Shown: positions 8,868 through 50,853, counted from the stretch's first letter. The stretch is 64,000 bases of DNA from an uncultured Candidatus Saccharibacteria bacterium (GCA_964566795.1 CAZMIU010000002.1:7965-71964), one strand, 5' to 3'. A program made the numbers and translations. Notes: a model not told the origin generated them from the sequence alone.

Positions 8868-9482
8868 GTGGTCTTTTGGTATGCTCGCTGCGCTATGGCA
8901 AGACCACCCCGTATCGATGTTGGCGACTGCGTCTATCATGTTTTGAATCGTGCAAATAACCGTGCCAAGATATTCCATACTCAACAGGACTACAAAGATT
9001 TTGAACGCCTACTTTTGGATATGAAAGACATATTCGGCATGCGAATTCTGGCGTACGCACTCATGCCTAACCACTGGCATCTGTTATTGCATCCTCGAAG
9101 TGATAAAGATTTGTCAAAAGCCATGCATTGGCTGACAACTACACATGTGCGTCGGTACCACGCTCGCCGTGATACCGTGGGACATGGGCATATCTATCAA
9201 GGGACATATAAATCCTCTTTGATTCAGAAGGACAAGCATCTTTTAACGGTATTGAAGTACGTCGAGCGTAACGCGGCACGGGCAAAACTATGTAAAAGGG
9301 TCCAGGATTGGGAATGGGGGAGTGCGAGCAAGCGTTTACGCAACCATTCGATACTTGCTGAGCTTCCTGTTGGTCTGCCCAGTGGGTATTTGCAGTGGGT
9401 TAACCAACGCGACCAGGCGGAGGCCCTTAAAGATATACGAGAAAGTATCAATAAAAACTTGGTTCAGCGCAGAATTGGGTGA
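8868..9482 (+). CDS. REP-associated tyrosine transposase (RAYT) / IS200-like Y1 (HuH) transposase
   Basis: YHVLNRANNR...ILAYALMPNHWHLLLHP (HuH motif)...VRRYH...GHIYQGTYKS...VLKYVERNA are hallmarks of the TnpA_REP / Y1_Tnp family. The track start at 8868 is GTG. An in-frame ATG at 8895 (MARPPRIDV) is an alternative start. Confidence 0.75.
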   Translation: MVFWYARCAMARPPRIDVGDCVYHVLNRANNRAKIFHTQQDYKDFERLLLDMKDIFGMRILAYALMPNHWHLLLHPRSDKDLSKAMHWLTTTHVRRYHARRDTVGHGHIYQGTYKSSLIQKDKHLLTVLKYVERNAARAKLCKRVQDWEWGSASKRLRNHSILAELPVGLPSGYLQWVNQRDQAEALKDIRESINKNLVQRRIG

Positions 9483-9632: not shown

Positions 9633-11057
9633 ATGCAAAACACCATACGCAGGGCACTTGGAATCTCTTTTATATTTGTCTGTTCGCTTGCTGTGCCTGC
9701 CATGGCCCACGCCTCGGTGGCAATTACTGAGGTGATGTACAACCCGCAGGGCACCGACTCGGGGCGCGAGTGGATAGAGCTGTACAACGATGGCACCGAG
9801 GATGTCACTGTTGTCGGTGGCTCGGGCAAGGACTCGTGGCGTGTTGTAGACTCGGCCAATCATACTATTGTTGACCCGGCAGGCGGCATAGGGCGCGGCA
9901 GCTTGGTTGTACCCGCGGGTGGCTACCTGGTTGTCTCAACTGACCCGTCGGTGTTTGTGGGGGAATACGCAGGCAGCTACTCGGTCGTAAAGTCGTCTCT
10001 CTCGCTTAACAACACCGGCACGACTGTCTCGCTTGTGGACGGCAGTGGTGCAACTATAAGCTCTGTCACGTACGCCTCAAGCCAGGGCGGCAATGACAAC
10101 GGTACGAGCCTGCAACATGCCTCCGGTGCCTGGATACAGGCGCTGCCTACGCCGGGTGCCGCAAACGCGGTGGAGTCTTACGAGCCTCCGAAAGAGGAGA
10201 CAAGCTCAAACACCACCTCGAGCAAGTCGAGTTCTACCTCAAACCCCGGCTATGTGTCGGCGCCACTGCCGCAGGTGTTTGCCAATGCCGGTGGTGATCG
10301 CACGGTTATCGTGGGTGCAGATACCAAGTTTGTGGCCACCGCCTATGACCGCGACAAGGATGTTATCTCGTACGCGAAGTTCTTTTGGAACTTTGGCGAC
10401 GGCACGACCGCGGAGGGCCCGTGGGTGATGCACCACTATAGCTACCCGGGCCGCTACGCTGTGGAGCTCACCATTACCAATACGAGCCTTAGAACCTCGA
10501 GCCGCATTACGGTTACCGCAGAGCCTGCCGCAGTGTCTGTAGAGCCTCTGGCACTCGGCGGTGTGTCTGTTAAGAACAACGCCGGGCACGATCTCGATCT
10601 CTCGTACTGGGTGGTTAAAGAGGGTGAGCATACCTTTGCGCTGCCTGAGTACTCGGTAGTGCTCAAGGGCTCCTCTATAAATATCTCTGCCAAGACTCTG
10701 GGCTTTGAGGCGCACGACCCCAAGCTCATGTATCCGGACGGCAGCGAGGTGCGCGGCTCTGACACCGCAGATACACCACAAGAAGCTGAGCGTTTGTCTG
10801 AGGCGGCCGAGGTTGATGTAGGCTATGCGCCGCTTATACCCGTACCGTTTATAGAGTCACCTCAGACTGAGCCGACAAGCAGCGACTCTACATCTACACC
10901 ACAGCTTGCCGCGGCAGTTATTGAAAGCGGAGTGGCTATGCCGTGGTGGCCGCTCGCAGGCCTTGGGAGCCTTATTGGCGTGGGTATCGCCAGCGTTGTT
11001 GCGGTGCGCCGTAAGCCTGTAACTACAGAGGCGGGGGCGGGGTTTACAATAGAGTAG
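9633..11057 (+). CDS. secreted, C-terminally membrane-anchored surface protein with lamin-tail domain and PKD domain
   Basis: Signal peptide (ISFIFVCSLAVPAMAHA). LTD motif ITEVMYNPQGTDSGREWIELYN. PKD motif FWNFGDGTTAEGPWVMHHYSYPGRYAVELTITN. Ser/Thr-rich linkers. C-terminal TM helix followed by RRKP. Confidence 0.65.
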   Translation: MQNTIRRALGISFIFVCSLAVPAMAHASVAITEVMYNPQGTDSGREWIELYNDGTEDVTVVGGSGKDSWRVVDSANHTIVDPAGGIGRGSLVVPAGGYLVVSTDPSVFVGEYAGSYSVVKSSLSLNNTGTTVSLVDGSGATISSVTYASSQGGNDNGTSLQHASGAWIQALPTPGAANAVESYEPPKEETSSNTTSSKSSSTSNPGYVSAPLPQVFANAGGDRTVIVGADTKFVATAYDRDKDVISYAKFFWNFGDGTTAEGPWVMHHYSYPGRYAVELTITNTSLRTSSRITVTAEPAAVSVEPLALGGVSVKNNAGHDLDLSYWVVKEGEHTFALPEYSVVLKGSSINISAKTLGFEAHDPKLMYPDGSEVRGSDTADTPQEAERLSEAAEVDVGYAPLIPVPFIESPQTEPTSSDSTSTPQLAAAVIESGVAMPWWPLAGLGSLIGVGIASVVAVRRKPVTTEAGAGFTIE

Positions 11058-11908
11058 TGGAAAAGAAACTGATAGTCGTGACCGGCGGAGCCGGCTTTGT
11101 GGGCTCGCATTTATGCGCGCGCCTTGTTGCTATGGGGCATAAGGTCATATCGCTCGACAACTACTTTACGGGTAGCAAAGACAATCATGTAGAGGGTGTG
11201 GAGTACCGTGAGGGCCATACCAAAGACATTGCCAAACACATACAAGAGACGCCCGACATCCTTTATCACCTGGGTGAGTACTCGCGCGTGGAGATAAGCC
11301 TGACTGAACCCGCGCTTGTGTGGGATCTAAACAAAGACGGCACGTTTGGAGTGCTGGAGTTTTGGCGGAGAAAGAAATGCAAGCTGGTGTACGCTGGCTC
11401 TTCGACCAAGTTTGGCGACGGGGGGTTGGCTCGCGTAAGTACTCCTTATGCATGGACAAAAGCAAGCAACACTGAGTTGGTGCAAAATTATGGTCGCTGG
11501 TACAGCTTGCCGTACGCGATTACATACTTTTATAACGTGTATGGGCCGGGCGAACGTGAGGGTAAATATGGCACCGTTATAGAAATTTTTAAACAAAAGA
11601 AGTTGCGCGGGGAGCCGCTGGGCGTGACAGCGCCGGGTACGCAAAAGCGCAACTTTACGCACGTTGATGATATTGTCGATGGGCTTGTGCTTGTAGGCGA
11701 GAGGGGAGAGGGAGACGAGTTTGGTTTGGGTAGTGAGCAGGCGTACTCGATACTTGAGGTGGCAGGGATGTTTGGGGGGGCCATAGAGATGCGCCCCGAG
11801 GCGCAGGGCAACCGCATGGAATCTGCACTTGATACGACAAAGTCCAGAGCACTTGGTTGGACGCCCAAGTGGAGCCTTACAGATTATATTAAGGGCAGTA
11901 CTCTCTAG
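11057..11908 (+). CDS. NAD-dependent epimerase/dehydratase (extended SDR; UDP-sugar epimerase or decarboxylase-like)
   Basis: TGGAGFVGSHL glycine-rich NAD motif and catalytic YAWTK (YxxxK). Confidence 0.8.
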   Translation: MEKKLIVVTGGAGFVGSHLCARLVAMGHKVISLDNYFTGSKDNHVEGVEYREGHTKDIAKHIQETPDILYHLGEYSRVEISLTEPALVWDLNKDGTFGVLEFWRRKKCKLVYAGSSTKFGDGGLARVSTPYAWTKASNTELVQNYGRWYSLPYAITYFYNVYGPGEREGKYGTVIEIFKQKKLRGEPLGVTAPGTQKRNFTHVDDIVDGLVLVGERGEGDEFGLGSEQAYSILEVAGMFGGAIEMRPEAQGNRMESALDTTKSRALGWTPKWSLTDYIKGSTL

Positions 11909-16890: not shown

Positions 16891-17661
16891 ATGAGCACGT
16901 TCCCCACACTCTTTAAACAAGCTCTCAAGCAGGCGTGCCTTTTTGTGCGCGACATACTCGCGCCCTTCTCCAGTGCGCCGGAGGTGGCCATATTGTGCTA
17001 TCACTCCGTGAGCGAGAGCGAGCACCCCACGGCCGTGCGCCCGAGCGCACTCGAGGCGCACCTGAGTTTTTTACAAAGGATGGGGCACAGCTTTGTGTCT
17101 TTGGAGGATATCGCGCAGTGGCAGGATGGCAGTAAGGCACTGCCGCAAAAGGCTGTAGCGCTTACCTTTGACGACGGGTACGCCGACTTTGAGACCACGG
17201 TAGTGCCGCTTCTGAAAAAGTTTAACGCGCCTGCCACTGTCTTTGTGATAGGCGAGGTGGGCGAGGCGCAGTACCGCGTGGACTCTGAGCCGTTTATGAC
17301 ACCGGAGGCACTCGCGCGCATTGCACAAGAGCCCTTGGTAGAGATTGGATATCACACGCGCACGCATCCTAATTTAGACGACATGGCAGAGTATCAATTG
17401 GCCGCCGAAGTGACTCCCCCGCCGGGTACCCGGTTTTTTGCCTACCCGGGCGGGCACCACTCGCACGATGCGGTGCGCGCAATAGAGCGGGCAGGGTATA
17501 CGGCCGCTTATACGATACGCCCCACGTTGGTACAAAAAGACAGCGACCGCTACCTTATGCCGCGCAGTGTTGTGCTTAGCGGTATGCGCCCATGGCAGCT
17601 GAGGTTTGCCGCCACCCGCGCCTGTGCTTGGTACATGGCGCTCAGAGGCAAACTTATATGA
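16891..17661 (+). CDS. polysaccharide deacetylase (CE4 / NodB-homology domain)
   Basis: LTFDDGY motif 1 and downstream His motifs (GYHTRTHP). Confidence 0.75.
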   Translation: MSTFPTLFKQALKQACLFVRDILAPFSSAPEVAILCYHSVSESEHPTAVRPSALEAHLSFLQRMGHSFVSLEDIAQWQDGSKALPQKAVALTFDDGYADFETTVVPLLKKFNAPATVFVIGEVGEAQYRVDSEPFMTPEALARIAQEPLVEIGYHTRTHPNLDDMAEYQLAAEVTPPPGTRFFAYPGGHHSHDAVRAIERAGYTAAYTIRPTLVQKDSDRYLMPRSVVLSGMRPWQLRFAATRACAWYMALRGKLI

Positions 17662-18470
17662 AGATACAGGCCTCGGTAGGGATACTGACATTTAACTCCG
17701 GGGAGACTTTGCGCCGCGCATTGGAGAGTGTGCGCGACTTTGACGACATTGTGCTGTGCGACGGCGGCTCCACCGACGACACGCTCGCTATTGCCGAGGA
17801 GTTTGGCGTGCGTGTGGTGCAGCAGGATGCGCGCTACAAACACGCAGACGGGAAGCTTAGGGATTATGGCGGCGTGCGCAATCAGTGCTTACATGCAGCC
17901 AGGCACGACTGGTTTTTATATATAGACTCCGACGAGACTGCCTCCCCCGGCCTGTGCGAGGAAATCCGCATGGCAGTGCAAAAACAGGAGCCGCTGGTGT
18001 ACCGCGTACCCATTGGCATCATGATGGACGGCCGCTATATAAAGTACTCGAGCAACTATCCGGGCTACCAGACCAGGTTTTTTAACAAACGCTCGGGTGC
18101 GCACTTTATACGCACGGTACACGAGCGCATAGAGTACTTGCCCCAAAGCATAGGGACCTTTAAGCAGCCTTGGTATGTGCACACCACGCGCGCCTACTGG
18201 CTTAACTACATTAAAGAGACAGCCGGGTACAGACCGCTTGAGGTTGAGCGCTCGTGCAAGGCTCCGTTGTGGCAATTTTTGCGCCATGGTGTGTTGCATG
18301 GGCTTAGGGTCTCGTTTGGTGTGGTCTTTAGGGCTTCATACTTGTACGGGCTCCACGGGTTTAAAGACACGCTGCCCTGGCAGGGTGAGTTTGGCCGTGC
18401 CATGGCTCCCCTGGTGCTTCTCTCTCAGGTTATACGGTGCAGGGCAAGACGCTTGCTTGCGCCCAAGTAG
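17658..18470 (+). CDS. glycosyltransferase family 2
   Basis: VGILTFNSGETL...DGGSTDDT...IDSDE (DxD) GT-A motifs. The ATG overlaps the upstream stop (ATGA). Confidence 0.7.
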   Translation: MKIQASVGILTFNSGETLRRALESVRDFDDIVLCDGGSTDDTLAIAEEFGVRVVQQDARYKHADGKLRDYGGVRNQCLHAARHDWFLYIDSDETASPGLCEEIRMAVQKQEPLVYRVPIGIMMDGRYIKYSSNYPGYQTRFFNKRSGAHFIRTVHERIEYLPQSIGTFKQPWYVHTTRAYWLNYIKETAGYRPLEVERSCKAPLWQFLRHGVLHGLRVSFGVVFRASYLYGLHGFKDTLPWQGEFGRAMAPLVLLSQVIRCRARRLLAPK

Positions 18471-18493: not shown

Positions 18494-19753
18494 ATGGACA
18501 TCCCATCACACTTAAGCGGACGCACGATCATTTTGGATATTGACGGTACGCTCGTGCCTGCGGGAGCTACTAAGGTATCCTCAACCATGGCGGCGCTCGT
18601 GGAGTGGCTTACCAAGCACAACGATGTGTACGTGTTTTCAAATAAAAACCTGCCACAGCGTAACCGCACGGTCGCAGAGAGCCTTGGTGTCCCCTTGCTC
18701 CAATCAAAGTTTAGAAAGCCGAGCCTGAGGGTACTGGACGGGGTGCCGCGCGAGAAGCCGCTTGTGGTGGTGGGCGACAAGGTGCTCACAGACGGGCTCT
18801 TGGCATGGCGCGCAGGTGCAGAGTTTATACATGTGGAGCGTCTCACACGCGGTGAGCCGTTCCTGGACCAGGTGCTAAACGCGATAGACGACGTGGCGGG
18901 GTATGCGTGGGCACTCCTGCGGCTCATGCGCCCCCTGCACTGGGTTAAGAACGTGCTTATTTTTGCGCCGGTGTTTTTTGCCAGAGAGGCGCTCCTCTCC
19001 GATGCGCTAGGCGCCGCGACAGCCGCGTTCTTTGCCTTTTCTTTCTTGGCGAGCGCGGGCTACATCATAAACGACCTCTCTGATATAGCGGCCGACCGCA
19101 CTCACCCTAAAAAGCGCACCCGCCCCCTTGCCTCGAAGCTTATACCAGTGCCCGCCGCACTATTGTGTTGTGCGGGTCTTGTCGCGGCGGCACTCGCGAC
19201 GCTCGCAGTGTTTGCTCCCGCAGCACTCACCATTGCGGTGGTGTATTTTGCGGTCTCACTCGTGTACAGCCTGTGGCTTAAATCGGTGCCCATTGTGGAG
19301 ATGCTTTTGTTTACGTGGTTTTACTACGCGCGCGTACTCATAGGCGGCATTGCCGCGGGTGTGACACTAACCGCGTGGCTTACGCTTGCGGTGGTGTTTT
19401 TGGCGCTGTTTTTGGTTATTGCCAAGCGGTATGTGCAGGTGCTCTCCGGTACTATCCGCGCTACGCTCGCCTACCCGGAGCCGTTTTTGCGCGGCATGCT
19501 CATCTTGAGTGGCACACTGGTTTTGGTGTTTTATGCGCTCTACACCGTGCTTGGCGCGGGCTCGAGCTTGGCGGCCTACTCGGTGGTGCCCGTCTTGGGC
19601 GGGATTATGCGCTACCTGCAGCTCGCGTTTACGGGTGCCGGAGTGGAGTATCCGGAGCGCGCCGTGTTTAGCGACCCGGGGCTTTTGCTCGCGGGTGTGG
19701 CCTGGGTTGGGGCGATACTCGTGATATTTTACGGACCCTCGGGTACGCTATAA
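18494..19753 (+). CDS. bifunctional fusion: HAD-family phosphatase domain + UbiA-family polyprenyl-phosphate 5-phosphoribosyltransferase (DPPR-synthase-like)
   Basis: N-terminal ILDIDGTL...VVVGDKVLTD (HAD motifs I and III, YqeG-like). The C-terminal domain has about 8 TM helices and INDLSDIAADRTHPKKRTRPLAS, which matches the NDxxDxxxDR...KRxRP signature of mycobacterial Rv3806c-type decaprenyl-phosphate phosphoribosyltransferase. Confidence 0.65.
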   Translation: MDIPSHLSGRTIILDIDGTLVPAGATKVSSTMAALVEWLTKHNDVYVFSNKNLPQRNRTVAESLGVPLLQSKFRKPSLRVLDGVPREKPLVVVGDKVLTDGLLAWRAGAEFIHVERLTRGEPFLDQVLNAIDDVAGYAWALLRLMRPLHWVKNVLIFAPVFFAREALLSDALGAATAAFFAFSFLASAGYIINDLSDIAADRTHPKKRTRPLASKLIPVPAALLCCAGLVAAALATLAVFAPAALTIAVVYFAVSLVYSLWLKSVPIVEMLLFTWFYYARVLIGGIAAGVTLTAWLTLAVVFLALFLVIAKRYVQVLSGTIRATLAYPEPFLRGMLILSGTLVLVFYALYTVLGAGSSLAAYSVVPVLGGIMRYLQLAFTGAGVEYPERAVFSDPGLLLAGVAWVGAILVIFYGPSGTL

Positions 19754-19760
19754 TCGCCGT

Positions 19761-20108
19761 ATGGGATACCTGCTCTTAGTACTGGCGCTCGTCTTTAACG
19801 CCTGCGCGAACGTGCTCATAAAGATTGGCTCGGTGCAGTTTGCCGGCATTGGAGACAACTTTATACGCGCCACGATAGGCAACGGGGCGTTTATGGCGGG
19901 GCTTGCACTCTTTGGACTCAATGTAGTGTTGTATGCACTGGCACTCTCGCGCATCCCGCTCTCAATCGGCTACCCCATCATGACCGTAGGTGGCCTGACA
20001 ATAATCACCATCGCGTCAGTCTTTTATCTGCACGAGTCCATCACATTTGTGCAGCTCATAGGGCTCCTCTTCCTGGCCCTGGGCATAGTGCTTGTGACCT
20101 ATAAATAA
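19761..20108 (+). CDS. small 4-TM SMR/DMT-family membrane protein (ArnE/ArnF- or GtrA-like candidate flippase for lipid-linked sugar)
   Basis: 115 aa, four hydrophobic helices. Its position immediately downstream of the UbiA-like gene mirrors the GtrA-like Rv3789 context. Confidence 0.55.
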   Translation: MGYLLLVLALVFNACANVLIKIGSVQFAGIGDNFIRATIGNGAFMAGLALFGLNVVLYALALSRIPLSIGYPIMTVGGLTIITIASVFYLHESITFVQLIGLLFLALGIVLVTYK

Positions 20109-20110
20109 GT

Positions 20111-21145
20111 ATGAAATTTTTTATAACGGGTGGGGCAGGGTTTTTGGGGATTAACCTGACGCGCTACCTGCTTGAGTGCGGGCACGAGGTTGTCTCCTAC
20201 GACCTCCTGCCTTTTGACTATCCGGAAAAAGATAAGGTGCACGCAGTAGTGGGCGATATACGAAACCTTGAGGCACTCAAGAGCGCCATGCAGGGCGCAG
20301 ATGTAGTGGTGCATACCGCAGCGGCGCTCCCGCTCTACAGCGCAGAGGATATCCGCTCGACAGATATCGAGGGCACTAAGAATGTGATGGAAGCTGCCAA
20401 AGCGCTCGGCATTACACGCGTAGTGCATGTGTCCTCCACGGCGGTGTATGGTATCCCCGACCACCACCCGCTTAAAGAAACCGACACACTAGATGGCGTA
20501 GGCGAGTATGGCAAGGCCAAGATTGCCGCAGAGGAGATTTGTGCCCGGTATCGCCAAGAGGGCATGTGTGTCTCCATTGTGCGGCCCAAGTCGTTTGTGG
20601 GGCCGGAGCGGTTGGGTGTGTTCGCATTGTTTTATGACTGGGCAGCAGACGGACACAACTTCCCCATGATTGGCTCGGGGTACAATCGCTACCAGCTTTT
20701 GGATGTAGAGGACCTGTGCGCGGCGCTCTACCTGTGCGCCACGATAGATAAAGAGCGCGCAAACGACACGTTTAATATCGGGGCCAAGGAGTTTACGACC
20801 ATGCGCGAGGATTATCAGGCGGTATTGACGCGCGCCGGGTTTGGTAAACGCATCGTGGGGCTGCCTGCCACGCCGGTTATCTGGACGCTGCGCTTTCTTG
20901 AGCTCCTCAAACTCTCGCCCTTGTACAAGTGGGTGTACGAGACTGCCTCCAAAGACAGCTTCGTCTCTATCGACAAAGCAGAGAGTAAGCTTAACTGGCA
21001 CCCGCGCTACTCCAACAAAGAGGCCTTGGTGCGCAACTATGAATGGTACCTCGCGCACCGCCACGAGTTTGTGGGACAGAGCGGTGTGTCGCACCGCGTA
21101 CCGTGGAAGCAGGGTGTTTTGTCGCTAGCTAAGCTGTTTTTCTGA
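20111..21145 (+). CDS. NAD-dependent epimerase/dehydratase (extended SDR)
   Basis: TGGAGFLGINL NAD motif and catalytic YGKAK. Confidence 0.8.
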   Translation: MKFFITGGAGFLGINLTRYLLECGHEVVSYDLLPFDYPEKDKVHAVVGDIRNLEALKSAMQGADVVVHTAAALPLYSAEDIRSTDIEGTKNVMEAAKALGITRVVHVSSTAVYGIPDHHPLKETDTLDGVGEYGKAKIAAEEICARYRQEGMCVSIVRPKSFVGPERLGVFALFYDWAADGHNFPMIGSGYNRYQLLDVEDLCAALYLCATIDKERANDTFNIGAKEFTTMREDYQAVLTRAGFGKRIVGLPATPVIWTLRFLELLKLSPLYKWVYETASKDSFVSIDKAESKLNWHPRYSNKEALVRNYEWYLAHRHEFVGQSGVSHRVPWKQGVLSLAKLFF

Positions 21146-22884
21146 TGCAGTATTTGCGCACTCATTGTCTGCTGCTCCTGGTGTGCGCCACGCTTGTGTT
21201 GGCGCTCGTGCCTCTTGTTGAGAGCCGCGTCTTACTAGGCAGTCAGTGGCAAGGCGTGGTGCCGGTGTACATGGATGAGTACATTTACTATGCCTATATC
21301 AGCGAGGCAGCGACAGGTAACTTATTTTTTGGTCACCCATATTTCTTGGAGCACCGCTTTGCCCCGCCACTGTTTTTGTCGGGCTCGGTGGCGCTTGGTG
21401 CGCTCCCTCTCTTGCTCGGGCTCCCTCTGCCCTGCGCAGTGCCGCTCGCCTTTGTGGTGTGGAGCGTAGTGTTTGTGCTCTTGTGCTACAGGCTACTGCG
21501 CGAGCTCTCGCTTGAGCCACTGTGGAGTGCTTGCGGGGCGCTCTTAGCGTACGCAGCGTGTTATGACCAGGTGTACCGCATTGGCGTGCGCCAGGAGGTG
21601 TATCCGTTCTTGCTCCTCTTCTATATCCTGCTTGTAAGGCTGGTGCACGAGCCCGGGAAACTGCGGGCCGCTTTGCTTGGCATAAGTGTGGGCGTCTCCT
21701 TTTATCTGTATGGGTTTTTGTGGCAAACAGTTGTAGTTACCCTTGCGCTCGCTTTTGCATACGCGGTCGTGTTTAGGCAGTGGGTGCTCCTGCGTGCACT
21801 GGCACTCACTGGCGTCGTTGCGGGTGCTGTGGCCACCCCGGCTCTTTTATATGCGTGGTGGGTGAGCGGGCAGCCCTACTTTTGGGAGAGCCTTAACCGC
21901 TACGGGCTGGTTGAAACCCACCTACCCGTGGCCGAAGTTATCTACTCTGGCGGGTGGGTGGGCATTGCGCTTGTGGTCTTGGGGACGCTGTACTGGCGTA
22001 TTAAAGTGCCTCGGGTGCGTACCGTCATATGTTTGATTGCCCTGATGGGTGCCGGCATATGGATAGTGCAGGGTAGCAATGTGCTCAGTGGCAAGCTCCT
22101 TGAGCAGGGTGACCATTTGCGCCGATTTATAACGCTATGGCTGCCGCTTGCCACTGCCGCATGTGCCTACATCTTTGTGCGTCACCAGGCACAGATGCCA
22201 AAGGCACTACGCGCAAGCTTTATGGCTGCGGGCGTTGTACTTGTGTGCGGGAGTTTAAACTTCGCGCTCCATCACACGCATCCGTTTACCAAACCGCTGG
22301 GCTCTGTACCACAGTGGCAGACACAGCAAACCTATGCGCCGGTATTGGAGTGGCTACAGATGCACGAGAGTGAGCCCGTGGTGGTGTGGAGTAATCCGCA
22401 CAGCTTTGCCACGGTGCATATACCGGTCTACACGCAGCACTATGTGCTCTACCTTGAGGCCGGGGAGTTGGCACTGATGTCGAGCAAAGAGATTGAGGAG
22501 CGCTACCTTGTCTCGAGCTACTTTGACCCGGTGGATGAGGTGTATCTTGAGAAAGACTTTGAGCAGTATGTGGGCCGTGCCAACGCCTATCACTTGCCGC
22601 AAACACTCGAGCGCGAGTCTTTGGTGTGCAGGTTGCTCCACTTGGGCAACAGCTCGTGTACCCCAGTACGCACACCGCAGGAACTCCTGGGTCATGAGTA
22701 CTTTGCTGCTTTGGCCGGAGAGTTTAAGGATGATATCAAACCAAACATCAAAGAGTATTTAAAGAAGTATCATGTATCGTATGTGCTAAAGGACCGCGTG
22801 CTCGACACGGCCTACCGCCCCGAGGCACTGGGCGCCACAGAAGTATATTCAGACGACCATTTCGGGTTATATAAACTGCCATGA
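21145..22884 (+). CDS. large polytopic membrane protein with C-terminal extracytoplasmic domain, GT-C-like glycosyltransferase candidate
   Basis: At least 10 predicted TM helices followed by a roughly 200-aa soluble domain. Translationally coupled (ATGA) to the upstream SDR. No specific motif was assigned by eye. Confidence 0.45.
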   Translation: MQYLRTHCLLLLVCATLVLALVPLVESRVLLGSQWQGVVPVYMDEYIYYAYISEAATGNLFFGHPYFLEHRFAPPLFLSGSVALGALPLLLGLPLPCAVPLAFVVWSVVFVLLCYRLLRELSLEPLWSACGALLAYAACYDQVYRIGVRQEVYPFLLLFYILLVRLVHEPGKLRAALLGISVGVSFYLYGFLWQTVVVTLALAFAYAVVFRQWVLLRALALTGVVAGAVATPALLYAWWVSGQPYFWESLNRYGLVETHLPVAEVIYSGGWVGIALVVLGTLYWRIKVPRVRTVICLIALMGAGIWIVQGSNVLSGKLLEQGDHLRRFITLWLPLATAACAYIFVRHQAQMPKALRASFMAAGVVLVCGSLNFALHHTHPFTKPLGSVPQWQTQQTYAPVLEWLQMHESEPVVVWSNPHSFATVHIPVYTQHYVLYLEAGELALMSSKEIEERYLVSSYFDPVDEVYLEKDFEQYVGRANAYHLPQTLERESLVCRLLHLGNSSCTPVRTPQELLGHEYFAALAGEFKDDIKPNIKEYLKKYHVSYVLKDRVLDTAYRPEALGATEVYSDDHFGLYKLP

Positions 22885-23933
22885 AGATGTATTTTGTAGC
22901 CAATGCCCGTATGCCTAGTGAGAAGGCGTATGGGATACATATCGCCCGGATGTGCGAGGCCTTTATAGAAGCCGGCCACGAGGTAAGGCTCGTGGTCCCT
23001 GCGCGTGCCCCGGGCTCTATGCGCGAGGCGTATGGGCTGCGTGTTGATGTGCCTATGGTCCGCCTACACTCGGTCTCGTTTGAGAAGTATGAAAGATTCG
23101 GCTTCTTTGTGATGGGTGTCTCGTTTGCGCTTGTGAGCTTGTGGTACCTGTGGCGCAAGAAAGTGGGCGGGGAGACGTTTGTTATCTACACGGTCGACAT
23201 GGACACCTTTAGCCACACGCTCCTGCCGCTTGTGGCCCCAGTGGTTGCAGAGTTCCACTCACCTAAAAAATCCACACTGCTTTCGCGCTTCTTCTTTAAA
23301 CGCGTGCAGATAGTTACCACAAACCCCCTCATTAAAGAGGAGCTGTCAAAGACATTTGCGCTTAAAGATATTCCTGTAGAGCCCAACGGCGTAGACGAGA
23401 GCTTTTTTGACCTGCCAGAGACTTCGGGCCGGAGCGCAATGTACCTAGGCCGGTTTTATAAGTGGAAGGGGCTCGAGGTACTGCCCAAAGCCGCCAAACT
23501 TATCCCTGATGTAGAGATGCGCGTGGTGGGCGGGAGCAAAGAGGAGTTTGAGAAGGTGTTTGGTGATGCGAGCGGTCTCCACTTTAGCGAGGTGCCGTAC
23601 GCACGCGTTAAAGATGAGTTGGCTCACGCCGATGTATTGCTCTTGACCGGCACTGCCCTAAACGAAGACTCCAACCGCTACACCGCACCCATGAAGGTGT
23701 TTGAGTACTTGGCGACAGGAAAGCCCATGGTGGTGAGCCGCACCGAGGCACTCAAGAGTCTTATACCCGAGAATTTGGCGCACTACTGCGAGCCGGATAA
23801 CCCGAAGGCATTGGCCAAGGCGATTGGGGAGGCTTTGAGCGACACGGGCGGCCGCGAGGCGCGCATTGCCTACGCGCGCGGGCACACATGGCGTGCCAGA
23901 GCAGAGCGTATTTCAAAACTCTTTACGAGCTAG
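22881..23933 (+). CDS. glycosyltransferase family 4
   Basis: [24 protein letters not shown]-terminal GT4 motif. 350 aa. Confidence 0.75.
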
Positions 23934-25875: not shown

Positions 25876-27861
25876 ATGAAAGCGGCCATATTAGAGACTA
25901 TTGACCAGCCCCTGGTTGTGGCCGAGGTCGGGTTAACCGAGCTCCAGTTTGGCCAGGTACTTATAAAGGTGCTCGTCTCGGGCATCTGCGGCTCGCAGCT
26001 TATGGAGATTGGCGGCCACAAGGGCAACGCCAAGTTTGTCCCGCATCTTATGGGCCACGAAGGCTGCGGCATTGTCGAGGAGGTGGGGCTCGGAGTCACC
26101 CGTGTTAAAAAGGGCGACAAAGTTATCATGCACTGGCGCAAGGGCGACGGTGTTGAGAGCGACTTCCCCGAGTACATTTACAACGGCAAGCGCATTAAGA
26201 GCGGCAAGGTCACCACCTTTAGCGAGTACTCTATCGTGTCAGAAAACCGTGTCACGCCCGTGCCGCATGACACACCCGAGGAGTTGTGTGCACTCTTGGG
26301 CTGCAGCCTCTCCACAGCGCTTGGCACTATTAATGACGAGGCAGAGGTAAAGTTTGGCGAGAGTGTGATGATTGTTGGCGCCGGCGGCTTGGGCATTAAC
26401 CTTATTAAGGCGGCCAAACTTGCCTCGGCGTACCCGGTCATCTCCCTAGACATACACGAGCACAAGCGCGCACTCGCGCTCTCGTTGGGTGCAGACCTTT
26501 TTATAAACGTGGCGACAGAGTCTCTGCAAGAGAAGCTGGCCGAGATCGGCCTTAAAGACGTAGATGTGATCATTGAGTGCTCGGGCTCTAAAAAGGCCAT
26601 AGAGGCCACACTCCCGTACCTCTCAGGCACCGGGCGCTACATAATGGTGGGCCACCCCAAACCCGGCGAGAGTGTTGAGATGCTCCACGCGGGGCACATG
26701 TTTGGCGGCGAGGGCAAGACTATCAAGGCCACGCAGGGTGGCGGCTTTAACCCCAGCAGGCATATCGCGCGCTATGTGCGTTTGGCGCGCGAGGGCAACC
26801 TCAATATCGACGGCATCATCACGCACCACACCACGCTCGACAATATCAACAAAGCGATTGATCAGGTTCGCGCCGGAGAGGCGAGCCGCATCCTCATTAA
26901 GATGCAGCACGACAAAGACCTCTGGCCCGCCTACCGCCGCATGATGAAGTTGCGCGTTGCGAGCGAGGAGCTGGTTAAGCACTATCTGGAGAAGAAGGTG
27001 TTTAGCATGGTGCACTTCTATGTTGGGCAGGAGGCCGTGGCTACTGGTGTGTGCGACGCACTCACGGACGGCGACCAGGTGATGAGCTCGCACAGGCCGC
27101 ACGGGCACTATCTGGCGCGCGGGGGCAGCTTCCGCTCCCTCGCGGCGGAGTTGTTTGGCCGCGCCGCTGGCACGGCACACGGCAAAGGTGGCTCGATGCA
27201 TCAGGTGGCGCGCGAGGCCGGCTTTGCGGGCTCCTCGCCGCTCTTGGGCAGTGCCGTGCCGCTTGCAGCGGGTTTGGCGTTTGCACAAAAATATCAAAAC
27301 AAAGACGGCGTCTCAGTGGTGTTTTATGGTGATGGCGCCTCGGAGGAGGGCGTGGTGTACGAGACCTACAACCTCGCCGCACTCTACAAACTTCCCATGC
27401 TCTTTGTGCTCGAGAACAACAGCTGGTCTATCAACTCGCCGCTTACAAACCGCCGCGCAGAGAACTATGATAGTAAAAAAGTGGCAGAGGGCTTGGGGCT
27501 CAGATACATAGAGGCCAACGGCAACGACTATGAAGATGTGGCGGCCAAAGCAAACAAGCTCATTAAAGATATCCGCGCCGGTGCGGGGCCGGCACTCCTG
27601 GAGTGCAAGGTGTATCGCCACATGGCACACTCGACGCCGCTTATGGATGAGAAGAACCGCCTTTTGGACACGCTCGAGGAGCGCCTTAAAGAGGACCCAC
27701 TCAAGAAATTGCGCACCAAACTTGTGGCCGCAGGTGTAAGTGAGGCAGAGCTTACACACGAGGAGGAGGCTATGCGCGAGGCGGCACGCGCAGACATTGT
27801 ATGGGCTACCGAGCAGCCGTATCCGCCCAAAGAGGATCTAACCAAAGATGTCTATGCGTGA
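25876..27861 (+). CDS. fusion protein: Zn-dependent medium-chain alcohol dehydrogenase domain + TPP-dependent 2-oxoacid/acetoin dehydrogenase E1 alpha subunit
   Basis: N-terminal [13 protein letters not shown]...GHEGCG...IVGAGGLG (MDR/Zn-ADH, butanediol/threonine-dehydrogenase-like). C-terminal [11 protein letters not shown]...[36 protein letters not shown] (E1-alpha TPP-binding). Confidence 0.8.
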
Positions 27862-28885
27862 TCCGATTAAATACAGCGAGGCAATAGCAGAGGCAACCAG
27901 GCAGCTCCTCGAGAGCGACCCGCGCGTGTTTGTGCTGGGGCTTGGTGTACCGCAGGGTACGGGCGCTGTGGGCTCGCTCGCGGGCGCATTCCCAACCCGC
28001 ATTATAGACACGCCGACAAGCGAGGCTGCACTTACCGGCATGGCAGTGGGTGCGTCTATCGCAGGGCTAAGGCCCATAGTATTTCATGACCGGGTGGAGT
28101 TTAGTTTGCTCGCATCGGATCAGATGTTTACGCAGGCCGCCAAGTGGCGCTACATGTTTGCTGGCGAGGGCGGCTCGGCACCCATTACATTGCGCATCAT
28201 GATAGGCCGGCAGTGGGGCAATGGGCCGCAGCACTCGCAGGCTCTCTATGGCATGTTTGGCTCGGTTACCGGTTTGCGCGTTGTTATCCCATCGTCTCCT
28301 TATATGATGAAGGGCCTATTGGCTGCTGCGGTAAAGGCAGATGACCCGGTGGTGGTGCTCGAACCCCGCTGGCTCTACAACATAAAGGAGGATGTGCCCG
28401 AGGAGTTGTACGAGCTGCCCTTAGATAAAGCGCGTGTGGTTAAAGAGGGTAGCGCGGTAACGGTTGTGGCCTATGGTGACGCTCTTTTGGCAGCGCGCGA
28501 GGCCCTGGCGCTTATGGGCGAGCACGCCGCTGGTGTAGAGCTTATTGATTTGGTGTCACTTAAACCTATTGACCACGCGACTATACACGCCTCTATAAAA
28601 AAGACAGGCAAGCTTATAACCGTGGACACCACCTCGGCTGCGTTTAGTATCGGCTCGGAGATTATTGGTATGGCGGCACAACATCGGGTTGGGTTTACGC
28701 ACGCACCACGCGCGGTGGCAGCACCCGATGTGCCGGTGCCTACAACACCCGCCTTGGCAGAGTATTGGTACCCGACCAAGGTAGATGTTGCCAACGCGAT
28801 ACTCGAGATGCTCGGGGCCCCAAAAATAGAGAAAGAGCTCACGTTTGAGGAGCTCCACATGGCCCCCACCATAACCCTGGAGTAA
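27848..28885 (+). CDS. TPP-dependent dehydrogenase E1 beta subunit (transketolase-like pyrimidine-binding and C-terminal domains)
   Basis: 345 aa. RVFVLGLGV...TPTSEAALTGMAVGASIAGLRPIV...VVLEPRWLY motifs typical of PDH/acetoin-DH E1-beta. Overlaps the alpha-fusion gene by 14 nt. Confidence 0.85.
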   Translation: MSMRDPIKYSEAIAEATRQLLESDPRVFVLGLGVPQGTGAVGSLAGAFPTRIIDTPTSEAALTGMAVGASIAGLRPIVFHDRVEFSLLASDQMFTQAAKWRYMFAGEGGSAPITLRIMIGRQWGNGPQHSQALYGMFGSVTGLRVVIPSSPYMMKGLLAAAVKADDPVVVLEPRWLYNIKEDVPEELYELPLDKARVVKEGSAVTVVAYGDALLAAREALALMGEHAAGVELIDLVSLKPIDHATIHASIKKTGKLITVDTTSAAFSIGSEIIGMAAQHRVGFTHAPRAVAAPDVPVPTTPALAEYWYPTKVDVANAILEMLGAPKIEKELTFEELHMAPTITLE

Positions 28886-30894: not shown

Positions 30895-32223
30895 ATGGCT
30901 AAAAACTCCAAGAACAAGGTTGCATACGTGGGCATGAGCGCCGACCTCGTGCACCCCGGACATCTCAACATTATTAAAGAGGCGGCAAAGCTCGGTGAGG
31001 TCGTGGTGGGCGTACTTACAGACGAGGCCATCGCGTCATACAAGCGCCTGCCGTACATGAGCTACGAGCAGCGCAAGGCGATCGTCGAGAACATTAAAGG
31101 TGTTTCGCGCGTCATCCCGCAAAAGACGCTCGACTACCGCCCCAACCTAAAGAGCCTCAAACCCGACTTTGTCGTACACGGCGACGACTGGAAGTATGGC
31201 GTACAGCAGGAGACGCGCCAACAGGTAATAGACACACTCGCCAAGTGGGGTGGCAAGCTTGTGGAGCCCGCTTACACCAAAAATATTTCCTCCACAGCGC
31301 TCCATAGCGCGCTTAAAGAGGTGGGTACCACGCCAGACCTGCGTCTTAAGCGCCTGCGCCGTTTGCTTGGCGCGAAGTCGCTGGTGCGCGGCATCGAGGT
31401 GCACAACGGCATCACCGGCCTCATTGTCGAGCACGTGTCTGTTAATCGCGAGAATAAAAAAGAGGAGTTTGATTTTATGTGGCTCTCGAGCCTCACCGAC
31501 TCCACCGCGCGCGGCAAGCCGGACACCGAGCTTGTAGACTCTACCACCCGCCTCACGACAATCCACGACGTGCTCGAGGTAAGTACCAAACCATTGGTAT
31601 ATGACGGCGACACCGGCGGGCAGACAGAGCACTTTCCGTATATGGTGCGCACTCTGGAGCGCCTTGGTGTCTCTGCAGTCATTATTGAGGACAAGCAGGG
31701 CCTCAAGAAAAACTCTCTCTTTGGCACTGCGGTAAAGCAGGAGATGGCCGACCCTAAAGCTTTTGCCGAGAAAATTAAGGCGGGCAAAAAAGCGCAGGTC
31801 ACCTCAGACTTTATGATCATTGCGCGTCTTGAGAGCATGATTGCGGGCAAGGGAGTTAAGGACGCACTCAAGCGCGCGCAGATGTATATAGACGCGGGTG
31901 CAGACGGCATCATGGTCCACAGCAAGGAGAAGGACCCCAAGGAGGTCTTGGAGTTCTGCCGCGAGTTTAAGAAGTTTAAAAAGAAGGTACCCCTGGTTGC
32001 CGTGCCCTCTACCTACCACACCATAACCGAGGAGGAGCTTGTTAAGGCCGGCGTCTCTATAGTCATTTACGCCAACCATCTCCTGCGCAGTGCCTATCCG
32101 GCTATGCTCAAGACTGCCGAGACTATCCTCAACCACGGCCGCGCCACCGAGGCACAGGAGCTGTGCATGCCAATCTCCGAGATTCTCACGCTCATAGACC
32201 GCAAAGGCAATGGTGCATCCTAA
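30895..32223 (+). CDS. ppm: bifunctional cytidylyltransferase (HxGH nucleotidyltransferase) + phosphoenolpyruvate mutase, Fom1-like
   Basis: N-terminal [19 protein letters not shown] (HxGH motif, CCT/TagD-like cytidylyltransferase). C-terminal [11 protein letters not shown] and the isocitrate-lyase/PEP-mutase fold (PEP mutase EDK motif). This architecture matches fosfomycin Fom1 (CyTase-PEP mutase). Confidence 0.8.
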
Positions 32224-33310
32224 AGCATTTATAGACTCGCTTAGTGCCGCGGGCGTCGACTACTTTGTGGGCGTGCCAGACTCGCTGCTTAAGGACGTAC
32301 TCTCCTACATTGATGAGGTGGTGCCGTGCGAGCGTCATATTATTGCGGCTAACGAGGGCAACGCGATAGGTATTGCCACAGGCTATAACCTTGCCACAGG
32401 TAAGGTGCCGTGCGTGTACCTGCAAAACTCAGGGCTGGGCAATGCAGTTAACCCGCTCGCCTCGCTCGCAGACCAAGAGGTGTACTCAATCCCGATGCTG
32501 CTTGTGATTGGCTGGCGCGGCGAGCCCGATACGCACGATGAGCCCCAGCACAAAAAGCAGGGTCGCATCACGCCGGCGCTCCTTGATACGCTCGAGATCC
32601 CGTACACCACCGACCTTGCCAAGGTGGGGGAGATGGTCGAGTTTGCGGTTAAGGATAGTTCGCCCGTGGCACTGTTGGTACAGGCCGGCAGCTTTGAGGC
32701 GTACAAGGGCAAGGTGCCGACCTCGCTCCTTAGTTGTACGCGCGAGGCCGCAATAGAGGAGATTGTCGCGGCTATAGAGCCCAGTGCCATTGTGGTGAGC
32801 ACCACCGGCAAGATATCGCGCGAGCTCTACGAGGTGCGCGGGCGCCGCGGCGAGAGTATGCGCGACTTTTTGACCGTGGGCTCGATGGGCCACGCCAACC
32901 AGATTGCGCTTGGCATTGCCACGCAAAAGCCAGACAGGCCGGTGTACTGCATAGACGGCGACGGCGCCACGCTCATGCACCTGGGCGGGCTCGCCACCGT
33001 AGGCTGGGTCGCACCCAAAAACTACAAGCACATTGTGCTTAACAACTTGGCGCACGAGTCGGTGGGCGGGCAACCCTCTGCCGCGGGTGTAGCCAACATC
33101 CCTGCTGCAGCCCAAGCACTTGGTTATGTGTCGGCCACAAGTGTCGACACCAAAGAGGCTATCGCGCCTGCCGTAAAGGCGATGGGCGAGGGCCCCGCAT
33201 TTTTGGAAATTAAGGTGAACCTGGAGTCGCGCAAAGATCTTGTGCGCCCCAAAGAGACACCGCTTGAGAATAAGCAGGCATTTAAGGAGTATCTCGATGG
33301 CACAAACTAG
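32210..33310 (+). CDS. ppd: phosphonopyruvate decarboxylase (TPP-dependent)
   Basis: 366 aa. Split TPP-enzyme layout with [19 protein letters not shown]-binding motif. Lies immediately downstream of the PEP mutase, as in all C-P biosynthetic clusters. Confidence 0.8.
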
Positions 33311-34286
33311 CTACATAGGAGAGGGTACATTGCACAAGATTACCGACATCGTGCGCGAGCTTGGTGTGCACAAAGTACTGCTTGTCGCGGGTGCGCACTC
33401 CTACGCGGCCTCCGGTGCTAAGGCATATCTTGATGAGGCGCTTAAGGATGTAGAGGTGAGGATGTACAGCGACTTCCATGCTGTCTTGGAGGACGAGGAT
33501 GTACAAAAGGGCATCGCGGTGCAAAACGAGTTCAAGCCCGACATTGTAGTGGCCGTTGGTGGCGGGCATGTGATGGACGCAGGCAAGGCTATTAACTACT
33601 ACGCAACGCGTGTGCCGGTTGTGGCGGTGCCCACTACCGCAGGCTCGGGGGCAGAGGCCACACCGTTTGCCGTCATTTATAAAAACGGCATTAAGACCTC
33701 GCTTGAGGGCCCTGAGGTGTTGCCCGCCTATGCTACTGTTGACCCTGCTTTAAACAATGCGCCGCGTGGTGTGATGCTCTCGGCTGGGCTTGATGCCTTG
33801 TGCCAGGCGATAGAGTCTTGTTGGGCGCGCGGCGGCAGTGATGAGTCACGCGAGTATGCCACGCAGGCGCTCAAGCTTGGTTGGCCCGCTTTAGAGAAGG
33901 CGCTCATTGGAGACAAAGACGCACGCGCCGACATGAGCATCGCTGCGCATCTGGCGGGCAAGGCTATAGCGATCTCTAAAACCACCGCATGCCACGCACT
34001 GTCCTACGGGCTTACCTACAAGTTTGGCGTGCCGCATGGTTTGGCGGTGGCACTTACAATGCCCGCTGTGATGCGCCACAATGCTGTAGCCTTGCCGCAG
34101 GGCATTACGCCCGAGGCGTTTGAGGATCTACTAAAACGCACAGAGGCACCAACCCTTAAGAGTTTTGGTGTAACACCCGAGGCTGTCGATGTGCTTGCAG
34201 GAGAGGTAGACCCGGAGCGCCTGAGCAACAACCCCAAGCCCCTGACGAAAGAGGATATTATTGCTATATATACGAGTGTTATCTAA
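33297..34286 (+). CDS. iron-containing alcohol dehydrogenase, candidate phosphonoacetaldehyde reductase (FomC/PhpC-like) producing 2-hydroxyethylphosphonate
   Basis: VAVGGGHVMDAGKA and downstream His motifs of the Fe-ADH family. Genomic context lies after ppm and ppd. Confidence 0.7.
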   Translation: MAQTSYIGEGTLHKITDIVRELGVHKVLLVAGAHSYAASGAKAYLDEALKDVEVRMYSDFHAVLEDEDVQKGIAVQNEFKPDIVVAVGGGHVMDAGKAINYYATRVPVVAVPTTAGSGAEATPFAVIYKNGIKTSLEGPEVLPAYATVDPALNNAPRGVMLSAGLDALCQAIESCWARGGSDESREYATQALKLGWPALEKALIGDKDARADMSIAAHLAGKAIAISKTTACHALSYGLTYKFGVPHGLAVALTMPAVMRHNAVALPQGITPEAFEDLLKRTEAPTLKSFGVTPEAVDVLAGEVDPERLSNNPKPLTKEDIIAIYTSVI

Positions 34287-34290
34287 CTGT

Positions 34291-43281: not shown

Positions 43282-43285
43282 TTGT

Positions 43286-45521: not shown

Positions 45522-45528
45522 TGCCGGT

Positions 45529-46215: not shown

Positions 46216-46256
46216 CAGAGAAGTTTTGTGTGGTAGTTTAGTGCCAGCAAGATTCT

Positions 46257-47312: not shown

Positions 47313-47322
47313 CCGAGTACTG

Positions 47323-47357
47323 CACCCTCCCCACTATCGGGGAGGGTGTTTCTTTTT
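47323..47357 (+). terminator. rho-independent terminator (caccctcccc-actatc-ggggagggtg followed by tttctttttg)
   Basis: 10-bp GC-rich stem plus T-run after the transporter gene. Confidence 0.65.
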
Positions 47358-47383
47358 GTACACTCGCGTGGTTATATGGACGC

Positions 47384-48439: not shown

Positions 48440-48445
48440 AAGAAG

Positions 48446-48472
48446 AGCCCCGGATGATAAGTCCGGGGCTTG
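48446..48472. terminator. bidirectional intrinsic terminator between convergent genes (gagccccgga-tgataag-tccggggct with A/T tracts on both sides)
   Basis: 8-10 bp perfect stem with a T-run on each strand. Confidence 0.6.
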
Positions 48473-48476
48473 AGTG

Positions 48477-48911: not shown

Positions 48912-48973
48912 ACAACTTGTAACAATCTTTGGGGGCTGTCAAGTTTCAGCCACCCAATGTATACTCTCTTTAT

Positions 48974-50845: not shown

Positions 50846-50853
50846 GCACACGT

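Follow-up and report, generated by a model that had tools for sequence, protein, structure and literature searches.

Gene organization of the locus

The sequence analyzed here, referred to below as the window, is a 64,000-nucleotide stretch of DNA from an uncultured Candidatus Saccharibacteria bacterium (GCA_964566795.1, CAZMIU010000002.1:7965-71964), and the element in question is a group of four + strand genes at positions 18494-22884, situated within a long co-directional glycan locus. An earlier note, made from the sequence alone, had described this group as a translationally coupled module that makes and uses a mycobacterial-type polyprenyl-phospho-pentose donor. The four open reading frames (ORFs), their strand, and the short gaps or overlaps between them were confirmed, and the genes can be described as follows:

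18494-19753, + strand: fusion of a haloacid dehalogenase (HAD) phosphatase with a UbiA domain, predicted polyprenyl-phosphate 5-phosphoribosyltransferase, 419 aa
19761-20108, + strand: protein of the small multidrug resistance (SMR) family, EmrE/ArnE/ArnF-like, with four transmembrane (TM) segments, predicted polyprenyl-P-pentose flippase, 115 aa
20111-21145, + strand: extended short-chain dehydrogenase/reductase (SDR), GalE-like, cytoplasmic, predicted polyprenyl-P-ribofuranose epimerase, 344 aa
21145-22884, + strand: membrane glycosyltransferase of GT-C fold and unclassified family, predicted to transfer a pentose to a surface glycan, 579 aa

The fusion and SMR genes are separated by 7 nt and the SMR and SDR genes by 2 nt; the SDR and GT-C genes overlap by 1 nt (TGATG), and the GT-C gene overlaps by 4 nt (ATGA) with the GT4 glycosyltransferase gene that follows it. 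Given gaps of at most 7 nt and these stop/start overlaps, "translationally coupled" is a fair term for the group. The fusion ORF may be read from an ATG, giving 419 aa, or from a GTG at 18437, giving 438 aa, and 17 homologues begin at or near the ATG. Each protein has from tens to thousands of homologues, and the linkage of the genes was found again in many unrelated contigs, so the arrangement is more than chance. The names of the homologues place the organism in the Candidate Phyla Radiation (CPR), as a Paceibacteria/Kaiserbacteria-like bacterium, and the locus as a whole is syntenic with other Paceibacteria loci, sharing with them a TrwB-like ATPase, an LTD protein, an epimerase, and several GT4 genes.

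The HAD-UbiA fusion protein

The fusion protein consists of an N-terminal HAD domain (residues 1 to about 125) and a UbiA half (residues about 135 to 419). The latter matches PF01040 at 50 bits and contains, at residues 192-214, the motif INDLSDIAADRTHPKKRTRPLAS, which the earlier note had quoted as the signature of Rv3806c, the mycobacterial decaprenyl-phosphate 5-phosphoribosyltransferase (DPPR synthase). When the protein was compared with the Protein Data Bank (PDB) using phmmer, Rv3806c (8j8j) was retrieved with an E value of 1.6e-32 over residues 140-408, the next hit being DGGGP synthase at 2.4e-3. The NCBIfam models of DPPR synthases were likewise the best or near-best ones (NF008978, 176.8 bits; NF008977, 150.9; NF008976, 122.5), whereas prenyltransferase models scored at most 40 bits, with the UbiA model at 25 bits and no match to MenA. 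By sequence, the UbiA half can thus be placed in the DPPR-synthase group as a distant member. An AlphaFold (AF2) model of the fusion (mean predicted local distance difference test score, pLDDT, 87.6) again gave 8j8j as the best Foldseek match (E 1.2e-12, TM-score 0.85, root mean square deviation 3.0 Å, 33% identity), whereas other UbiA enzymes reached TM-scores of 0.67-0.72 with 16-20% identity.

The paper describing the Rv3806c structure lists the residues that contact Mg, ribose, pyrophosphate, and the 5-phosphate, and those binding the 5-phosphate are absent from ordinary UbiA enzymes. The equivalent residues of the fusion were read off the HMMER alignment. Ten of the twelve residues that bind 5-phosphoribosyl-1-pyrophosphate (PRPP) or decaprenyl phosphate in Rv3806c are identical in the fusion (R22, K28, Y70, N73, D77, K87, R90, Y138, K143, and Y157 of Rv3806c), and in an alignment of 18 fusion homologues these ten, as well as R322 of the fusion, are invariant. 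They include the 5-phosphate binders K28, Y70, and Y157; as ordinary UbiA enzymes do not share these residues, nothing in the sequence speaks more strongly for PRPP as the donor than their retention. Sequence, profile, and structure are therefore concordant, and the UbiA half is clearly of the Rv3806c type, as the earlier note had proposed. In two of the related loci a PRPP synthetase gene adjoins the HAD-UbiA gene in divergent orientation (L005, 8917-9903, - strand; L049, 8949-9896, - strand), which agrees with PRPP supplying the sugar; a gene of this kind was not found in the 64-kb window.

The N-terminal domain carries the HAD motifs DIDGT (DxDxT) at residues 15-19, K75, and GDKVLTD (GDKxLTD) at residues 94-100, and 18 homologues all keep D15, D17, T19, K75, and G94-D95/D100. 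Its top profile matches were YqeG, HAD-IIIA, and PGP_phosphatase, all under the curated cut-offs, and in the AF2 model it forms a four-stranded Rossmannoid core with no cap. A precedent for its role comes from the "three-component" system that adds pentofuranose side chains in Citrobacter youngae O1/O2 and comprises ORF15, ORF14, ORF13, and ORF12 (Kelly et al., PNAS 2024, PMC11127046). In this system, ORF15 (PRP-PPPRS) combines an N-terminal HAD phosphatase with an Rv3806c-like enzyme and makes polyprenyl-P-ribofuranose (Ribf) from PRPP, removal of the 5-phosphate by its HAD domain, which has an alpha-helical cap, having been shown experimentally (PMC11127046). By analogy, this supports the suggestion of the earlier note that the HAD domain fused to UbiA could remove the 5-phosphate. 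The HAD domain of the window looks, however, like a capless, HAD-IIIA-like member of another subfamily than the capped PRP domain of ORF15 and that of a 489-aa HAD-UbiA protein of Sinorhizobium fredii NGR234; a different subfamily was deduced from the fact that NF006088, the model of PRK08238 HAD-UbiA fusions, aligns to residues 103-318 only, that is, to the UbiA part. The joining of a capless HAD domain to UbiA suggests an independent fusion event. A HAD gene placed after the UbiA gene, or a split of the two, is seen in several further lineages of CPR bacteria.

The SDR protein

The 344-aa protein is an extended SDR (PF01370, 137 bits) with the motifs TGGAGFLG at residue 6, SSTAVYG at residue 108, and YGKAK at residue 133. 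It has no signal peptide, and since it also has no TM segment and its NAD-binding motif lies at the extreme N-terminus, it should be cytoplasmic. The extended-SDR part of the earlier assignment holds, while its likening to DprE2, a classical SDR, was rejected because PF00106, the model that covers DprE2, gives no match. The closest solved relatives are dTDP-glucose 4,6-dehydratases and UDP-glucose 4-epimerases (E 3e-20 and weaker), and the best NCBIfam matches include HpnA and OleD, enzymes acting on lipid substrates.

Gene linkage was surveyed in 79 distinct loci retrieved with the fusion protein, neighbors being counted within 5 kb of the UbiA gene. An SDR orthologue (at least 450 bits) was present in 44 of these loci and, among the closest UbiA relatives, in 37 of 46. 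Across CPR classes the SDR retains about 74-79% identity, whereas the UbiA fusion stands at 32-55% and the SMR protein at about 39%: where loci have fusion proteins with 52-53% and SMR proteins with 39% identity, their SDRs agree at 78-79%, and in a Zambryskibacteria locus the values are about 74% for the SDR and 32% for the UbiA protein. A homologue search returned more than 8000 matches, of which the best 120 are 73-100% identical, the named ones being nearly all from CPR bacteria. Homologues encoded beside Rv3806c-like UbiA genes were also found in Natronococcus (52% identity), Streptomyces (44%), and Sinorhizobium NGR234 (35%). The linkage to UbiA genes, the conservation, and the motifs together indicate that the SDR serves transferases of this type as a dedicated partner and is not a general nucleotide-sugar enzyme. 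Its putative counterpart in C. youngae O2 is ORF13, a cytoplasmic GalE-like SDR that changes the side chain from Ribf to xylofuranose (Xylf; PMC11127046). The SDR of the window has the TGxxGxxG and YxxxK motifs and no signal peptide, and its gene takes the relative position that ORF13 has in C. youngae. In seven of the related loci, a conserved soluble protein of about 200 aa without an assigned family (cluster c15) is encoded between the UbiA and SDR genes (e.g., L004, 11317-11928, and L012, 11323-11931); it is absent from the window.

The SMR protein

The 115-aa protein contains four hydrophobic segments and matches PF00893 (Multi_Drug_Res) at 24.0 bits, the cut-off being 23.7. In NCBIfam, MdtJ, ArnE, and ArnF were matched at E values of 3e-6 to 2e-5, all far under their cut-offs. 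The earlier note had called the protein SMR/GtrA-like. The SMR half of this description (EmrE/ArnE-type) stands, whereas the GtrA half was rejected: SMR and EamA models match, and GtrA (PF04138) gave no match in the Pfam and NCBIfam profile searches, so any likeness to Rv3789 is one of role only. In the linkage survey an SMR homologue was present in 32 of the 79 loci, and the window protein is 31% identical to the product of an SMR gene in the UbiA/SDR cluster of NGR234. Since ORF14 of C. youngae is an EmrE/ArnE-like protein with four TM segments and a predicted flippase (PMC11127046), the SMR protein is by analogy predicted to flip polyprenyl-P-pentose.

The GT-C protein and the genes next to it

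No sequence match for the 579-aa protein was found in Pfam, NCBIfam, or the PDB, and a 65-sequence profile of its family matched none of the solved GT-C enzymes; its assignment hence rests on the predicted fold. The AF2 model (pLDDT 93.6, predicted TM-score 0.91) shows about 11 TM helices followed by a C-terminal domain of about 180 aa that is predicted to be extracytoplasmic. The best 31 Foldseek matches of this model in the PDB were all GT-C enzymes, among them STT3/PglB (8.6e-6) and AftA (4.4e-5) as well as AglB, DPY19, ArnT, ALG3, PimE, Emb, AftD, and AftB, which places the modeled protein in the GT-C fold, in line with the earlier proposal. Across 65 sequences D44 is invariant and E45 and Y48 are nearly so; these residues are in the loop that follows TM1 (residues 8-34). 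In other GT-C enzymes the catalytic acid is located in the first extracytoplasmic loop, and by analogy D44 is the catalytic candidate. After clustering at 50%, 1171 representatives fall within the family at E ≤ 1e-3. ORF12, the corresponding enzyme of C. youngae, is an 11-TM GT-C with a C-terminal domain (family GT136) that transfers Ribf or Xylf and whose closest relative by sequence is ArnT (PMC11127046).

Two further glycosyltransferase genes flank the group:

17658-18470, + strand: GT2 glycosyltransferase, directly upstream of the fusion gene (PF00535, 72.5 bits)
22881-23933, + strand: GT4 glycosyltransferase, directly downstream of the GT-C gene (PF13692, PF00534)

Orthologues 46% identical to the GT4 protein are encoded right after the GT-C homologue in three related loci (L001-L003) and in many metagenome loci. 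The gene is a conserved partner of the GT-C gene, and its product probably builds or extends the acceptor glycan. The GT2 protein was rejected as a donor synthase of GtrB/DPM1 type, its closest PDB matches being GmaR, SunS, and chondroitin synthase; when the proteins of the loci were clustered, it did not group with the GT2 of about 240 aa that accompanies the GT-C family elsewhere. The UbiA cassette of the window occupies the place usually held by that GT2 before the GT-C gene. A Pfam scan of the major ORFs revealed no second GT2 (PF00535) protein in the 64-kb window, nor did the 579-aa protein prove to have a rival there as a candidate of GT-C fold. Two further polytopic proteins were set aside: that at 46257-47312 (351 aa, nine hydrophobic segments, no Pfam match) sits in a nonulosonic-acid cluster, and that at 57415-59649 is Wzy_C/O-antigen-ligase-like and not a GT-C.

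Proposed pathway

These findings led us to the view, which we hold with moderate confidence, that the four genes form a PRPP-dependent module for lipid-linked pentofuranose glycosylation of the C. youngae O2 type. On the cytoplasmic face, the UbiA half would move 5-phosphoribose from PRPP onto polyprenyl phosphate, and the fused capless HAD would strip the 5-phosphate to leave polyprenyl-P-Ribf. The cytoplasmic GalE-like SDR, using bound NAD+, would then epimerize the lipid-linked ribose, by precedent most likely at C3 to give Xylf, or alternatively at C2 to give arabinofuranose (Araf). An SMR dimer would flip the lipid-linked pentose to the outer face, where the 579-aa GT-C would attach it to a cell-surface glycan, the backbone of which would be the work of the GT4, GT2, methyltransferase, and deacetylase genes around the module. 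As to the pentose, the earlier note had named a donor of the ribofuranose/arabinofuranose type; Xylf, Araf, and Ribf are all candidates, and the precedent of ORF13, which takes Ribf to Xylf, makes Xylf at least as likely as Araf. By this analogy we rate Xylf somewhat above Araf, because in a published survey Xylf-containing glycans go with homologues of the ORF13-type SDR and Araf-containing ones with homologues of DprE1/DprE2 (PMC11127046).

Alternative interpretations

Several observations weigh against this interpretation. All DPPR-synthase models score under their equivalog cut-offs (NF008978, 207; NF008977, 234; NF008976, 474), two PRPP-site residues of Rv3806c are replaced in the fusion (Q135 by S255 and K208 by A323, the adjacent R207 being kept as R322), and the matches of the SMR protein are weak (24 bits in Pfam; E 0.19 for EmrE in the PDB). 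The remaining ones concern the GT-C protein, whose family is elsewhere mostly preceded by the ~240-aa GT2, frequently with GtrA encoded close by, and in some cases fused to GT2 in proteins of about 814 aa. Among 80 metagenome loci with a GT-C homologue, 32 were scored as GT2 type, 2 as UbiA-cassette type, and 30 as "neither," and all six of the upstream ~240-aa ORFs inspected in the last group have typical GT2 N-termini. Linkage of the GT-C to the UbiA cassette was seen in only about five loci (the window, L012, L015, L095, and L149), the last four of which show the SDR/GT-C juxtaposition in differing gene orders, and the cassette-linked GT-Cs are not one clade in a rough, unbootstrapped neighbor-joining tree. 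Moreover, in many CPR loci a different, PMT_2-type GT-C follows the SDR, so that the true pentosyltransferase of this genome could lie outside the window. Many Saccharibacteria-type loci are arranged as GT2, c6, SMR, HAD-UbiA, SDR, and PMT_2-type GT-C, where c6, which hhalign relates distantly to the 579-aa family (probability 85%), comes after GT2. One may therefore suppose that the cassette works as proposed but that the 579-aa GT-C uses a polyprenyl-P-sugar made by a GT2, the pentose being used by a GT-C encoded outside the window; a GT2 gene is present in the window, three genes upstream. We consider this unlikely, albeit worth keeping in mind. The only GT2 of the 64 kb clusters apart from the partner GT2, its best PDB matches are not GtrB or DPMS, and neither another PF00535 protein nor another GT-C-fold candidate was found in this stretch; the cassette stands in the exact position of the GT2 gene, with the 1-nt SDR/GT-C overlap; at least four further loci are arranged in this way; and ORF12 accepts more than one pentose donor. 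For these reasons a pentose is, judging from gene position, rather more probable as the substrate of the GT-C than a donor made elsewhere. The earlier claim that the GT-C uses a polyprenyl-P-sugar is thus borne out as far as the fold is concerned, while its use of the pentose is inferred from position in a family usually partnered with GT2.

The other alternatives concern the donor itself. If the locus encoded a true mycobacterial-type pathway to decaprenyl-phosphoryl-arabinose (DPA), the SDR would act as a 2'-epimerase in place of DprE1/DprE2 and the product would be polyprenyl-P-Araf. The UbiA half is indeed closest to Rv3806c, AftA is among the top structural matches of the GT-C, and a GalE-type SDR could in principle oxidize and re-reduce C2 with a single bound NAD+; oxidation and re-reduction with one bound NAD+ is established SDR chemistry. 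However, the survey mentioned above pairs Araf glycans with DprE1/DprE2 homologues and Xylf glycans with the ORF13-type SDR, the SDR of the window does not match PF00106, and a Pfam scan of the major ORFs of the window found neither a classical-SDR DprE2 nor a DprE1-like FAD oxidase, the sole FAD_binding_4 protein being MurB (2429-3346). We regard this pathway as improbable. It appears very improbable that the SDR simply feeds neighboring Leloir glycosyltransferases as a common nucleotide-sugar epimerase or dehydratase and is unrelated to any lipid-linked pentose: its closest solved relatives are of that kind and the locus is rich in GT4 genes, but the orthologue is tied to DPPR-synthase-like UbiA genes in CPR classes, a haloarchaeon, an actinobacterium, and a rhizobium, the lipid-substrate enzymes HpnA and OleD are among its best NCBIfam matches, ORF13 is a direct precedent, and the window has separate SDRs of the nucleotide-sugar type at 11057-11908 and 50854-51801. 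Finally, the UbiA domain could be read as a prenyltransferase for aromatic or lipid substrates, of the MenA, UbiA, or DGGGP-synthase type, within a cluster that makes a quinone or lipid, given that it belongs to Pfam UbiA and that the NDxxDxxxD motif is common to the whole superfamily. This reading was rejected and may be disregarded for practical purposes, as the profile, PDB sequence, and structure comparisons given above all separate the domain from such enzymes, the phosphoribose-binding residues specific to Rv3806c are retained, and the neighboring genes serve glycan synthesis and not quinone synthesis.

Other features of the window

An IS200-like Y1 transposase gene (8868-9482) lies between the genes of the TrwB-like ATPase (6921-8777) and the LTD/PKD surface protein (9633-11057), which are immediate neighbors in the syntenic loci L004 and L005. 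The stretch 25876-28885 encodes an unusual 661-aa fusion, composed of an N-terminal zinc alcohol dehydrogenase and a thiamine pyrophosphate (TPP)-dependent E1 alpha-type dehydrogenase component, and, after it, a transketolase-like E1 beta protein. A phosphonate-type cluster at 30895-37486 encodes a phosphoenolpyruvate mutase/cytidylyltransferase fusion (30895-32223), a TPP-dependent decarboxylase (32210-33310), an Fe-alcohol dehydrogenase (33240-34286), a CDP-alcohol phosphatidyltransferase-like membrane protein (34261-35109), and a 797-aa glycerophosphotransferase-like protein with a GNAT domain (35093-37486), which suggests a phosphonate-decorated surface polymer. The nonulosonic-acid-type cluster at 42457-51801 contains, besides the polytopic protein mentioned above, genes for a GFO/IDH/MocA oxidoreductase, a DegT aminotransferase and a second DegT protein, a CMP-sugar-type cytidylyltransferase, NeuB with a SAF domain, and a Polysacc_synt_2 dehydratase. 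Further downstream are a predicted secreted protein of 643 aa with an N-terminal hydrophobic segment, a Pro/Glu-rich linker, and no Pfam match (55323-57254), and the 744-aa Wzy_C/O-antigen-ligase-like protein with C-terminal TPR repeats (57415-59649). A similar polytopic protein of about 750 aa (c19, the representative of which has a TPR-like C-terminal region) adjoins the UbiA/SDR cassette in L025, L026, L043, and L049.

Significance of the cassette

The claim of a lipid-linked pentose pathway outside Actinobacteria is supported by these data but is not new: the pathway type, the HAD-UbiA fusion, and the occurrence outside Actinobacteria were all published in 2024, so that the present finding extends a known theme and does not open one. 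No literature linking CPR bacteria, Patescibacteria, or Saccharibacteria to this pathway was found. Possibly new points are the breadth of the SMR/HAD-UbiA/SDR cassette in CPR bacteria, with 302 relatives in a species-level genome scan, the unusual conservation of the SDR, the apparently independent fusion with a capless HAD, and the apparent exchange of donor cassettes before an unclassified GT-C family.

CPR bacteria are tiny, mostly uncultured, and often attached to host cells, and to our knowledge almost nothing is known of their surface chemistry. A PRPP-derived pentofuranose pathway widespread among them would predict a specific envelope sugar, perhaps relevant to attachment or recognition. 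With its high conservation, the SDR would be a good candidate for an enzyme that epimerizes a polyprenyl-P-pentose on its own, of which we know only one example with genetic support so far. The apparent swap of a GT2-made for a PRPP-made donor before one GT-C family could show how surface glycans diversify. A broader hypothesis, which we put forward only tentatively and would not expect to hold in full, is that the SMR/HAD-UbiA/SDR cassette is a hallmark of loci for surface glycans in Patescibacteria (CPR), that its SDR converts polyprenyl-P-ribose as a single enzyme to Xylf or Araf, so that a conserved pentofuranose would be displayed by many CPR lineages, and that the 579-aa GT-C represents a new family at the CAZy level that has switched repeatedly between GtrB-made and PRPP-made donors by cassette swapping.

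Comparison with known systems

An SDR homologue together with an Rv3806c-like UbiA protein is encoded, as in the window, in S. fredii NGR234 (pNGR234a), Streptomyces sp. SAT1, and Natronococcus sp. CG52, the records of which describe no function. The Natronococcus cluster contains two GT-C genes and has a PHP-domain protein instead of the HAD. The NGR234 cluster (L087, pNGR234a 299533-314534) lies near nodS on the symbiotic plasmid and comprises genes for the SDR, two SMR proteins, a GMC oxidoreductase, a 658-aa hypothetical protein, an NAD(P) oxidoreductase, and the 489-aa HAD-UbiA fusion; the SMR genes and the fusion are features shared with the window, whereas the GMC-family and second NAD(P)-dependent oxidoreductases are extra. 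The cluster resembles a rhizobial pathway to a pentofuranose donor.

Among systems with assigned roles, the Gtr serotype-conversion systems (GtrA flippase, GtrB GT2, and GtrC GT-C) have the arrangement in which the 579-aa family occurs in most other loci, but in the window the UbiA/SMR/SDR cassette takes the place of the GT2/GtrA pair. The Arn pathway of lipid A modification (ArnA, ArnC, ArnE/ArnF, and ArnT) shares an SMR-type flippase, a polyprenyl-phosphate pentose donor, and a GT-C with the proposed module. In the Arn pathway, however, a GT2 makes the donor from a UDP-sugar, and the SDR acts on the nucleotide sugar, whereas the donor enzyme of the window would be PRPP-dependent and is of UbiA type. 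The mycobacterial DPA pathway begins with Rv3806c, to which the first enzyme of the proposed module is homologous (33% identity, fold, and PRPP-binding residues), and follows the same logic of a cytoplasmic lipid-linked pentose that is flipped and used by a GT-C, with AftA, Emb, AftD, and AftB among the structural matches. It differs in its phosphatase (the PAP2 protein Rv3807c instead of a fused HAD), in its epimerization (the FAD oxidase DprE1 and the classical SDR DprE2 instead of one extended SDR), and in its transporter (Rv3789, of GtrA type, instead of an SMR protein).

The closest known system is that of C. youngae O2, which is nearer than the mycobacterial pathway. The four functions are likewise found in adjacent genes (a HAD-fused phosphoribosyltransferase, an EmrE/ArnE-like protein with four TM segments, a GalE-like SDR, and a GT-C of about 11 TM helices with a C-terminal domain), and the residues mutated in ORF15, N247, D248, D251, and D255, correspond to N193, D194, D197, and D201 of the window protein when mapped by the shared NDxxDxxxD motif. 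There are three differences: (i) the HAD of the window is a capless domain of about 125 aa resembling YqeG, HAD-IIIA, and PGP phosphatases, whereas the PRP of ORF15 is capped; (ii) the GT-C of the window has no detectable sequence similarity to ArnT or to solved GT-Cs, whereas ORF12 is nearest to ArnT, which at the sequence level argues against close kinship with ORF12/GT136; and (iii) the host is a CPR bacterium with no sign of lipopolysaccharide, so the acceptor should be a surface glycan other than an O antigen.

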